Positions 12,996 to 15,709 of a DNA stretch of 22,408 nt are shown one piece after another (position 1 is the stretch's first letter; every line of letters begins with the position of its first letter). This DNA comes from a virus (Duplodnaviria > Heunggongvirae > Uroviricota > Caudoviricetes). The notes below the pieces were generated by a model, which saw only the letters and a list, made by a program, of their open reading frames with translations, did no database searches and was not told the DNA's origin. The stretch lies in IMG/VR virus record IMGVR_UViG_2869970738_000007; one strand, 5' to 3'. The translations under genes were made by a program, and so were the position numbers.

Positions 12996-14357
12996 TCAGC
13001 CGCCGGACGCACTGCCGTAGTTCACACCGGTGATCACCGCCACCGCCGCGGTACGGCGACGACGCCAGTTGATCCAGCGCTCCGCACGGATGGCCACACT
13101 GCCTGTCTGGAACATGGAAACCAGCTCCACCGGCGACGGCGTGGTACTGTCGCCGGTCGGCTCAGACTGCATTTCCAGTGATGCCTCGCGGGACATATCC
13201 ACTGCCACGCCGCCGTCATCCGCCAGATAAATATCCGGGGCATTCACCAGCACCAGCTGGTCACCCACGTACTGGGAGACAATCACCGGCAGCCCCTGGA
13301 AGGTCCCCCCCAGCAGGGTCATGTCCGGGTATTCCTTCTGACCCAGCGTATTTTTACGCATGGACAGCGCCAGGGCATTGGTGCTGGACATCAGCCAGAC
13401 CGCACCGGTGGGCTGCAGGTTTGCTGCCACAAACTGTCCAAACGCCGCCTCTGTATCCGCATCCGGGTTACCGGTTGATGCCTTGCCCTTCACATCATGG
13501 GTGATGGACGCCGGGGAGACATCTGCCACTGCGGCTTTTTTCGGGTCCACAAAGTCTGTGTCCAGACGCGCCACCACCGCTTCTGCCAGCGCATTACGGA
13601 CCAGCGCATCAGCTGCCGGACTGGAAAAACGGATCAGCTCTTCCGTCAGTACCGCAATGGCCGACACCTTCGCATGACTGAAGGTGATGGATTCAAAATC
13701 AAACTTCGTCAGGGGTTTTGCCTTACCCTCACCCACCCAGCCGGCAGCACCGCCGGACACCTGGGCGTGCACACGGATATTGAACGGCACCTGACGAAGT
13801 GCAGGGATCCCGCCCTGACCAAATCGCCCGATAATGGTCTGCGGACGCAGGTAATCAATAAAGTCCTGTGCGTATTCCTGATATTCAGACAGGCTGCCTG
13901 CCCACTGCGGATCCGTGGTGGTCCCCGCGCCCACTGCCGATTTCAGGACATGATGCAGACGACTGTCATCCAGATACTGACGACGGGCCACTTCCAGGGC
14001 TTCAGATCGGACGCCTTTAGCCGCAGCCAGCGATTTGGCAAAGCGGGCGAAGCCAATCCCCTTATCCAGTTTCTGCTCCACACGGATCACCGGCGCAGAA
14101 GCCACCGCGGCCACATTCCCGTTACCGGCCTGTTTCACCGGCTGCGCCGTGGCGGCCTTACCGGCTTCCAGTTCACGCAGGCGCTTCAGGTGCGCATCCA
14201 CCTGACGGATTTCCGCTGCGGTGTTGTCGTAATGCTCTTCCTCCTCCACATCCAGCGTGCGCCCTTCCTCTGCGGCTTTGGTCATGACCTCCTCAAGGGA
14301 GGCTGCCAGCGCTACACGCTTGTTTTCAAAACTTTTAATCTGTTCGCCAATATTCAT
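12996..14357 (-). CDS. Phage major capsid protein, HK97 fold, with N-terminal delta (scaffold-like) domain
   Basis: 453 aa; ATG at 14357. N-terminal coiled coil MNIGEQIKSFENKRVALAASLEEVMTKAAEEGRTLDVEEEEHYDNTAAEIRQVDAHLKRLRELE followed by an HK97-type capsid body. Confidence 0.85.
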   Translation of the reverse strand: MNIGEQIKSFENKRVALAASLEEVMTKAAEEGRTLDVEEEEHYDNTAAEIRQVDAHLKRLRELEAGKAATAQPVKQAGNGNVAAVASAPVIRVEQKLDKGIGFARFAKSLAAAKGVRSEALEVARRQYLDDSRLHHVLKSAVGAGTTTDPQWAGSLSEYQEYAQDFIDYLRPQTIIGRFGQGGIPALRQVPFNIRVHAQVSGGAAGWVGEGKAKPLTKFDFESITFSHAKVSAIAVLTEELIRFSSPAADALVRNALAEAVVARLDTDFVDPKKAAVADVSPASITHDVKGKASTGNPDADTEAAFGQFVAANLQPTGAVWLMSSTNALALSMRKNTLGQKEYPDMTLLGGTFQGLPVIVSQYVGDQLVLVNAPDIYLADDGGVAVDMSREASLEMQSEPTGDSTTPSPVELVSMFQTGSVAIRAERWINWRRRRTAAVAVITGVNYGSASGG

Positions 14358-14444
14358 TATGGTCTTTTCCTTATGAAAAACGGTTGTTGGGTGATGCTGC
14401 CAACTTACTGATTTAGTGTATGATGGTGTTTTTGAGGTGCTCCA

Positions 14445-14720
14445 GTGGCTTCTGTTTCTATCAGCTGTTCCTCCTGTTCAGCTACTGACGGGGTGGTGCG
14501 TAACGGCAAAAGCACTGCCGGACATCAGCGCTATCTCTGCTCTCACTGCCGTAAAACATGGCAACTGCAGTTCACTTACACCGCTTCTCAACCCGGTACG
14601 CACCAGAAAATTATTGATATGGCCATGAATGGCGTTGGATGCCGGGCAACTGCACGCATTATGGGCGTTAGCCTCAACACGATTTTACGTCACTTAAAAA
14701 ACTCAGGCCGCAGTCGGTAA
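14445..14720 (+). CDS. insA: IS1 InsA, GTG start
   Basis: Translation (M)[17 protein letters not shown]...; one substitution (P to S at the CxxC region) relative to copies 1 and 4. Confidence 0.9.
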
Positions 14721-14764
14721 CCTCGCGCATACAGCCGGGCAGTGACGTCATCGTCTGCGCGGAA

Positions 14765-15142
14765 ATGGACGAACAGTGGGGATACGTCGGGGCTAAATCG
14801 CGCCAGCGCTGGCTGTTTTACGCGTATGACAGGCTCCGGAAGACGGTTGTTGCGCACGTATTCGGTGAACGCACTATGGCGACGCTGGGGCGTCTTATGA
14901 GCTTGCTGTCACCCTTTGACGTGGTGATATGGATGACGGATGGCTGGCCACTGTATGAATCCCGCCTGAAGGGAAAGCTGCACGTAATCAGCAAGCGATA
15001 TACGCAGCGAATTGAGCGGCATAACCTGAATCTGAGGCAGCACCTGGCACGGCTGGGACGGAAGTCGCTGTCGTTCTCAAAATCGGTGGAGCTGCATGAC
15101 AAAGTCATCGGGCATTATCTGAACATAAAACACTATCAATAA
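14765..15142 (+). CDS. insB: IS1 InsB reading frame
   Basis: Translation identical to the copy-1 InsB frame. Confidence 0.8.
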
Positions 15143-15152
15143 GTTGGAGTCA

Positions 15153-15709
15153 TTACCCGGTTGTTGACTGTGCCGCAGCGCCGGCAGAAGATGCGATTTT
15201 CACCACCGGTTTCCGGTTGCCGGACGCGGCAGAAAACGGGCTGTCGTAAGATTTAATGGTCCGGATGGTGCATTCCGCATTCGCGGGCACGGTGACGGCA
15301 GACACCTCCATCAGTTCCCAGCGCAGAAAATGCAGTCCGCCTCCGTCCAGAAAGGTGTATTCATGGGGACGGAAGCCCACGGACAGCCCCTGACCAGCCC
15401 GGTCTTAATGGCCGCCCAGACCTCATCCAGCCGGGCAGCCAGTTGCGACGGCATATCCGGTACGGGCTTCACCAGTGTTGCCGTGATTTCCAGCCCTTCG
15501 CTGACCCGGCGCACCGTACACTGCCCCACCGGGCGGGAATGGTCATGCTGCCAGAGAAACGGGATCGCACTGCCAAACTCCGCGCCCTCCGGCTCCAGGA
15601 TGTCACCATCCCGATCCGGAGAAGGCGTTGACGCAATCCCGGTGATCACCCATTCATCCTCACTGAAGGATTTCACCGTCAGCAGGGAACAGGCCCGTTT
15701 AAGAGTCAC
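15153..15709 (-). pseudogene. Phage prohead maturation protease (HK97 gp4 family), frameshifted; present 3' end lies inside the IS1 terminus
   Basis: N-terminal frame (15311..15709, GTG start after AGGAGG): ...WVITGIASTPSPDRDGDILEPEGAEFGSAIPFLWQHDHSRPVG.... C-terminal frame (15153..15380): ...LMEVSAVTVPANAECTIRTIKS.... Both segments match the prohead-protease family; the present stop falls 2 codons inside IS1. Confidence 0.75.

Follow-up and report, generated by a model that had tools for sequence, protein, structure and literature searches.

In phage HK97 the scaffolding function is part of the capsid protein, and the prohead protease and the capsid protein are specified by separate genes lying in different frames (gp4, nt 3348–4025; gp5, nt 4028–5185). 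Duda et al. are said to have reported in 2013 that the C-terminal region of the HK97 protease targets the enzyme to the procapsid. Nested genes are found in the C/Nu3 system of lambda, I/Z of phage Mu and UL26/UL26.5 of herpesviruses, where initiation at an upstream start yields the protease fused to an assembly protein, and initiation at an internal start in the same frame yields an excess of the assembly protein by itself; the C-terminal part common to both products carries the protease into the procapsid. In actinobacteriophages, one gene encodes the capsid maturation protease along with a scaffolding region and an HK97-like capsid subunit (PMC5513430, PMC7302621, bioRxiv 10.1101/2020.01.10.891226), and protease-capsid fusions of these viruses have been called 'common in small-genome siphoviruses' (PMC9671004). 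The present analysis concerns the protease/capsid boundary of a lambdoid head-gene block carried on the minus strand of a caudovirus sequence of 22,408 nt (IMG/VR record IMGVR_UViG_2869970738_000007; the whole stretch is referred to below as the window), at which a copy of the insertion sequence IS1 is found. Very likely, the region is that of one phage head gene which IS1 has interrupted; its intact form gives a protease-capsid chain and probably, nested within it, the capsid protein alone. The gene layout is that of the actinobacteriophage fusions, which belong to other hosts and other sequence families and for which the papers cited report no internal start. It differs from HK97 in that protease and capsid are fused, and from the lambda, Mu and herpesvirus systems in that their nested product is a separate scaffolding protein, whereas here it is proposed to be the capsid protein itself.

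The reconstructed protease-capsid gene

Removal of IS1 (768 bp, nt 14390–15157, plus strand) and of one copy of the duplicated target gives a minus strand that reads ...CAG TCA ACA ACC GTT TTT CAT AAG GAA AAG ACC ATA ATG AAT ATT GGC..., which translates in frame and without a stop to QSTTVFHKEKTIMNIG and joins the two parts in a single frame as QSTTVFHKEKTI-MNIGEQ. A first-pass annotation made from the sequence had noticed this stop-free passage from the protease into the capsid ATG and had proposed an ancestral protease-capsid fusion as one explanation; both points are confirmed by relatives that lack IS1, which carry one coding sequence (CDS) of 645 codons with matches to both PF04586 and PF05065. 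For example, E. coli strain 4/4 has a single 1938-bp CDS for WP_000173031.1 (645 aa, 'phage major capsid protein'), placed between the large terminase gene and a small open reading frame (ORF), with the portal gene next. Over the 2.1 kb that can be aligned, the window gene differs from that of E. coli 4/4 by 24 substitutions and one 1-bp deletion, and the junction is identical. The junction is a single open frame in this strain, in all 80 close viral contigs and in 60 distinct diverged junctions, so that the continuity of the frame is real and not due to chance. Alignment of the reconstructed sequence to relatives without IS1 revealed no stop at the boundary in close relatives, and the native C-terminus of their protease, for which a different frame had been considered, was found in the frame of the capsid. 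A fused ancestor is almost certain. Since no stop codon separates the two parts, the protease of the intact gene can be made only as a protease-capsid chain. The term 'read-through product' used in the first-pass annotation is a misnomer, and stop-codon read-through was dropped as an explanation, as the fused forms have no stop to read through. Programmed -1 frameshifting on the A-rich linker was likewise set aside, the A runs being out of the required register and absent from the E. coli version.

The intact ORF of 645 codons comprises an S78 protease (about residues 1–165), a variable, AT-rich linker of about 25 residues, and the capsid part (residues 193–645). In the window, the capsid part is an ORF of 453 aa (nt 12996–14357, minus strand) with its ATG at nt 14357–14355. 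It begins with a helical region resembling the delta (scaffolding) domain of HK97, followed by a predicted HK97-fold capsid domain that matches PF05065 (Phage_capsid; 55.5 bits, cut-off 24.2, residues 194–443 of 453), and its sequence weakly matches that of the solved capsid 9d9w. By Pfam, it belongs to the same capsid family as HK97 gp5 (delta domain plus capsid) and, as in that phage, the capsid protein here appears to include the scaffolding function.

The protease part is represented by two overlapping ORFs on the minus strand (nt 15311–15709 and nt 15153–15380) which jointly match the S78 prohead protease. According to the annotation of intact relatives, the fused gene starts at a GTG (nt 15709–15707), and a Shine-Dalgarno (SD) sequence, AGGAGG (nt 15715–15720, minus strand), lies 5 nt upstream. 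In the N-terminal fragment (nt 15311–15709), which carries the invariant His (FLWQHD), the reading frame is lost after a 1-bp deletion. Alignment with the related locus L001 places this deletion in a run of G residues (nt 15387–15390, minus strand) that is G4 in the window and G5 in intact relatives. The shift occurs two codons ahead of the putative catalytic-serine motif GLSVGF, so that Ser110 is no longer in frame with the N-terminal part. The remaining, C-terminal part of the protease, together with most of the linker between the domains (nt 15167–15386, minus strand), is in the native frame, continuous with that of the capsid; it is this frame, with the conserved C-terminal part of the protease (GLSVGF...VTVPANAEC), that adjoins IS1. 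The frame-repaired protein matches PF04586 (Peptidase_S78) with 37.9 bits (cut-off 21), and His55 and Ser110 are invariant in 12 homologues. HK97 gp4 is of the same protease family (hhalign, 128 aligned columns), with its MSVGF motif aligned with LSVGF; Ser110 is aligned with Ser114 of gp4, and His55 is one column off His65, these being the gp4 residues that we take to be catalytic.

In the window itself, the two domains do not lie in one uninterrupted frame, as they do in the reconstructed ancestor and in all relatives without IS1. Both IS1 and the frameshift interrupt the gene, and the window therefore holds a pseudogene of the fusion family. Apart from these two lesions it is the same gene as that for WP_000173031.1 (PHROG 617), and for annotation purposes its three ORFs (the 453-aa 'capsid' and two short 'protease' ORFs) should be regarded as pieces of one pseudogene. 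A fused gene of this kind is already known, being annotated in RefSeq, in GenBank phage records and in PHROGs, with analogues in actinobacteriophages; the window carries an ordinary gene that has been inactivated by IS1. A separate observation concerns E. coli O157 strain Al Ain (L002; NZ_CP043539.1), the record of which marks three genes as frameshifted, namely those for the large terminase, the fused capsid protein and the portal protein. These look like homopolymer sequencing errors rather than biology, and single-base frameshifts in such records, possibly including the deletion in the G run of the window, therefore need to be treated with caution.

Fused and separate forms in the capsid family

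Matches to the reconstructed sequence were found in 1251 of 5426 complete E. coli genomes. Among the matches listed that span both halves, the sole feature underneath is a 'phage major capsid protein'. PHROG 617 spans the fused protein from end to end. Phage JLK-2012, in which the fused protein is annotated as 'putative major head protein/prohead proteinase', and the Stx2-converting phage 1717 also have the fused gene, so that fusion proteins do occur in related phages as the first-pass annotation anticipated. Searches of the literature for naturally occurring fusions of an HK97-type protease to a capsid protein in phages of enterobacteria returned nothing specific. Homologues of 644–648 aa with 73–77% identity and matches to both PF04586 and PF05065 are found in Salmonella, Enterobacter, Klebsiella, Serratia, Kosakonia and Pantoea, and the alphaproteobacterium Chelatococcus carries a fused copy with 46% identity.

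The wider family was surveyed with the capsid part alone, using the 150 best representatives of clusters formed at 50% identity and counting as fused those in which the capsid start is preceded by 140 residues or more. By this measure 107 of the 150 are fused, spanning 40–57% identity, and 103 of them carry an S78 protease. In the remaining four (P0146, P0177, P0197, P0204) an unrelated, ClpP-type protease is fused to the same capsid family at the same position. Two proteins of about 1090 aa (P0123, P0126) have an AAA ATPase domain upstream of the capsid, with an S78 match in P0126 only.

Some relatives at about 40–55% identity, among them several viral contigs, Burkholderia phage vB_FUB47a and a Pelagibacterium contig, have separate genes, with 0–86 nt between the protease stop and the capsid ATG. 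The closest spacing is seen in the L098 group, in which a TAA directly abuts the capsid ATG in the same frame, so that the fused and separate states are one mutation apart. Both states occur in this capsid family, and the fused one is the commoner. The unfused proteases of this family (loci L011, L174, L179, L182) end in a conserved basic tail, ...VVKLxxPARDRAxPFVIRxIKR, which is not present in the fused forms. Speculatively, this tail could be a capsid-targeting peptide that a covalent link makes needless.

A candidate internal start at the capsid boundary

The capsid ATG is preceded at a distance of 10 nt by AAGGA (nt 14368–14372, minus strand), which coincides with the linker codons K-E and resembles an SD sequence. 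The feature is conserved in the 60 distinct fused junctions, all of which have AGGA, AGGAGG or GGAGG 5–10 nt before an internal ATG or GTG (GTG in two of the 60). A scan of genome contigs gave at least eight loci and a first viral scan gave loci of 96–99% identity only; the diversity of junctions was obtained from scans seeded with distant representatives. The residues encoded by the linker vary with the lineage (HKEKTI, RKGNNT, IKGKN, PQEGRD, PEGNS and others). Met occupies the first capsid position in 98 of the 107 fused representatives, and the other nine include five with Val and two with Leu. The Val-start junctions for which DNA is available use the codon GTG (fused L096 and L172, as well as L097, which is cut by the end of its contig). 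For pairing with the 3' end of 16S rRNA, the mean predicted energy is -6.5 kcal/mol over the 60 junctions and -2.4 kcal/mol over 1611 other in-frame ATG or GTG codons of the same genes, and values of -4.4 kcal/mol or lower are reached by 98% of the former and 20% of the latter (Mann-Whitney p = 2e-26). Where a Gly codon lies just upstream it is GGA in 48 of 61 cases, compared to 7.8% elsewhere in the genes, and the G+C content of the 30 nt upstream of the internal start is 38%, compared to 56% for the whole ORF. The unfused relatives have the same SD-ATG arrangement. That the nucleotides are constrained, and not the residues, is the signature of a working ribosome-binding site (RBS). Judged from sequence, the longer frame contains both an RBS and a start codon, and initiation at the first capsid codon is likely. 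The first-pass annotation had noted that the capsid has an RBS of its own and that independent initiation was likely, and the comparative data bear this out. A limited literature search found no description of this conserved internal start.

The intact gene would then be read from two starts to give products with identical C-termini, the shorter nested in the longer. Initiation upstream would yield a minority of protease-capsid chains, and initiation at the capsid boundary would yield capsid protein alone. By way of its capsid part, a fusion chain would assemble together with free capsid protein and in this way bring the protease into the procapsid, where it would cut away itself and the scaffolding, N-terminal helical region. 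The ratio of the two starts would set the dose of protease, and the covalent link would do the job of the targeting region of the HK97 protease. To judge from the conserved junctions, the widespread fusion genes of this capsid family are probably of the same two-product type, with free capsid protein in excess and protease-capsid chains as the vehicle. The comparative data suggest an unannotated internal start across a large family of fused head genes, and it is in this that the modest interest of the locus lies. If true, the number of protease copies per procapsid would be set by translation initiation, which could be tested in lysogens of Stx phages, and the system would be a bacterial-virus counterpart of herpesvirus UL26/UL26.5 in which the nested product is the capsid protein.

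Several considerations weigh against this picture. The 60 junctions include many related Enterobacterales sequences and amount to about eight independent lineages, and internal initiation is deduced from comparative sequence only. The predicted structure of the 645-aa fusion, made with 12 homologues, has a mean predicted local distance difference test (pLDDT) score of 38; because of this poor prediction the domain limits given above were taken from Pfam matches and secondary structure only, and two long helices predicted at residues 195–261 (pLDDT about 70–74) can serve as a hint only. The protease-capsid fusions of actinobacteriophages have been treated as single-product genes, with no mention of an internal start (PMC5513430, PMC7302621).

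The description of those analogous genes as encoding one fused protein also speaks for the strongest of the rival explanations, according to which translation proceeds from the upstream start alone, every capsid subunit carries a protease that is trimmed off later, and the internal Met and AGGA are linker residues rather than a start site. All annotations show a single gene, and linkers rich in Lys and Gly could by themselves yield codons containing AGG. This would not explain why the choice of codon is constrained too, as in the preference for GGA, nor why Met, where it is replaced, gives way to Val (as GTG) or Leu, the residues of alternative start codons. The linker residues vary while AGGA holds the spacing of a start site, and the unfused relatives use the same SD-ATG to begin a separate gene. 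Production of the fusion only is accordingly considered unlikely, and two nested products are preferred.

A further feature of the linker lies upstream of this start. Synonymous diversity, computed over 48 fused genes (alignment A3; L001, L004–L170), has its gene-wide minimum at linker residues ~161–189, with an entropy of 0.02–0.14 bits compared to a mean of 1.21. Two nucleotide-invariant islands (GCCGCGnnnGGC and GCTGGCGCTACAGCA) are seen here, at nt 15172–15185 and about nt 15215–15230. They are able to form small hairpins, for which there are a few compensatory changes. The first (GCCGGCGCTGCGGC, nt 15172–15185, minus strand), which IS1 separates from the capsid start in the window, is a possible small hairpin or recombination joint. 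From their sequence, the islands could be an RNA element near the internal start, and the invariant pair of small hairpins might tune that start from upstream. Protease and capsid halves are discordant in their similarity (91–92% against 72–73%, and 64% against 85%), and the islands could therefore equally be joints at which protease and capsid modules recombine.

Recombination joints of this sort, rather than expression signals, are what a neutral scenario would make of the conserved linker nucleotides. In that scenario fusions have arisen repeatedly by loss of a stop, and the SD-ATG is an old start that has not yet decayed. Fused and unfused forms differ by as little as the one codon seen in the L098 group, the halves are discordant as just described, and the ClpP-type protease found on the same capsid family in four clusters marks the junction as a site of exchange. 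Against these points stands the fused majority itself, which extends over the range of 40–57% identity, yet has kept the start codon, its spacing and the rare GGA while the linker diverged freely. This indicates purifying selection rather than a decaying relic, so the neutral scenario is given very little weight. The weakest explanation, also raised in the first-pass annotation, is that the protease frame next to IS1 is already a shifted one and that its continuity over about 11 codons is coincidental; although the window protease does have a frameshift, and an open stretch of 11 in-frame codons is not in itself improbable (about one case in five by chance), this reading was rejected as vanishingly improbable in view of the E. 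coli 4/4 CDS, the alignment and the 80 open contigs, as the frameshift lies about 220 nt upstream and leaves the junction frame unaffected, the frame at IS1 is that in which the intact 645-aa protein is encoded, and the junction is identical in E. coli 4/4 and in 63 of the 80 close viral contigs.

The IS1 insertion and the prophage remnant

The IS1 copy at the junction lies antisense to the phage genes and is bounded by imperfect terminal inverted repeats of about 23 bp, GGTGATGCTGCCAACTTACTGAT and GGTAATGACTCCAACTTATTGAT. It carries insA (nt 14445–14720, plus strand) and insB' (nt 14765–15142, plus strand), and its called gene matches the Pfam families Zn_ribbon_InsA, HTH_Tnp_IS1 and DDE_Tnp_IS1. 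On either side is a copy of the 9-bp target-site duplication CGGTTGTTG (left, nt 14381–14389; right, nt 15158–15166), of which relatives have a single copy at the same place; 9 bp is the usual length for IS1. The target corresponds to the AT-rich linker codons S-T-T-V of the fused protein (about residues 186–189), 32 nt upstream of the internal ATG. Size, inverted repeats, the insA/insB' arrangement and a 9-bp duplication in an AT-rich target are all typical of the IS1 family, and nothing about this copy is unusual. As a result of the insertion, the protease frame of the window now ends two codons inside IS1. The capsid ORF retains its SD and ATG but stands behind 768 bp of antisense IS1, which cuts it off from its operon, and no sigma-70-like promoter pointing from IS1 to the capsid gene was detected. 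None of the 5426 complete E. coli genomes has the junction between IS1 and the capsid gene. An exact copy of the 453-aa capsid ORF is present in NCBI record CP026795.1 and in one SRA assembly.

The other genes of the head block, likewise on the minus strand, specify an HNH endonuclease (nt 18285–18650), the small terminase subunit (nt 17431–17994) and the large terminase subunit (nt 15773–17434). Between the capsid and portal genes is an ORF of 73 aa (nt 12730–12951, minus strand) that overlaps the start of the portal gene. It is followed by the portal gene, which in the window is split into three ORFs (nt 10547–12784, minus strand). Compared to L001 (nt 8150–10735), the portal gene has a 101-bp deletion near nt 12133, 1-bp deletions near nt 11541 and nt 10579, and one repeat unit fewer (162 bp) near nt 10980.

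Four copies of IS1 occur in the 22.4 kb (nt 2338–3105, 7830–8596, 14390–15157 and 22078–22408); one of them shares only 91% identity with the rest, and one is truncated at the window end. Phage homology ends at the copy at nt 7830–8596, beyond which are chromosomal genes (dcm, yedA, yedJ and a porin gene), nt 1–7829 being chromosomal. The tail genes have therefore been lost from the window. The copies at nt 7830–8596 and from nt 22078 bound the phage-derived DNA, which marks a prophage remnant of about nt 8597–22077. The IS1 insertion, the 1-bp deletion in the protease part, the several breaks in the portal gene and the loss of the tail genes together mark this remnant as decaying and non-functional. 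The window itself matters little, as it presents another IS1 hit in such a remnant, in a gene that is routinely annotated.

Three further features of the block were noted. The 73-aa ORF is conserved (WP_001063099.1; PHROG 829, a family of unknown function). The portal protein of intact relatives is 861 aa long and has a normal portal domain at residues 54–382, followed by a C-terminal extension of about 450 aa with tandem 54-aa repeats (PVPRDGRDYDP...EAVSHI). Lastly, a terminator-like hairpin followed by a T run (GAACCGCTCCGGCGGTTTTTTTTATTTTC, nt 15731–15748, minus strand) lies between the stop of the large terminase gene and the RBS of the fused gene.

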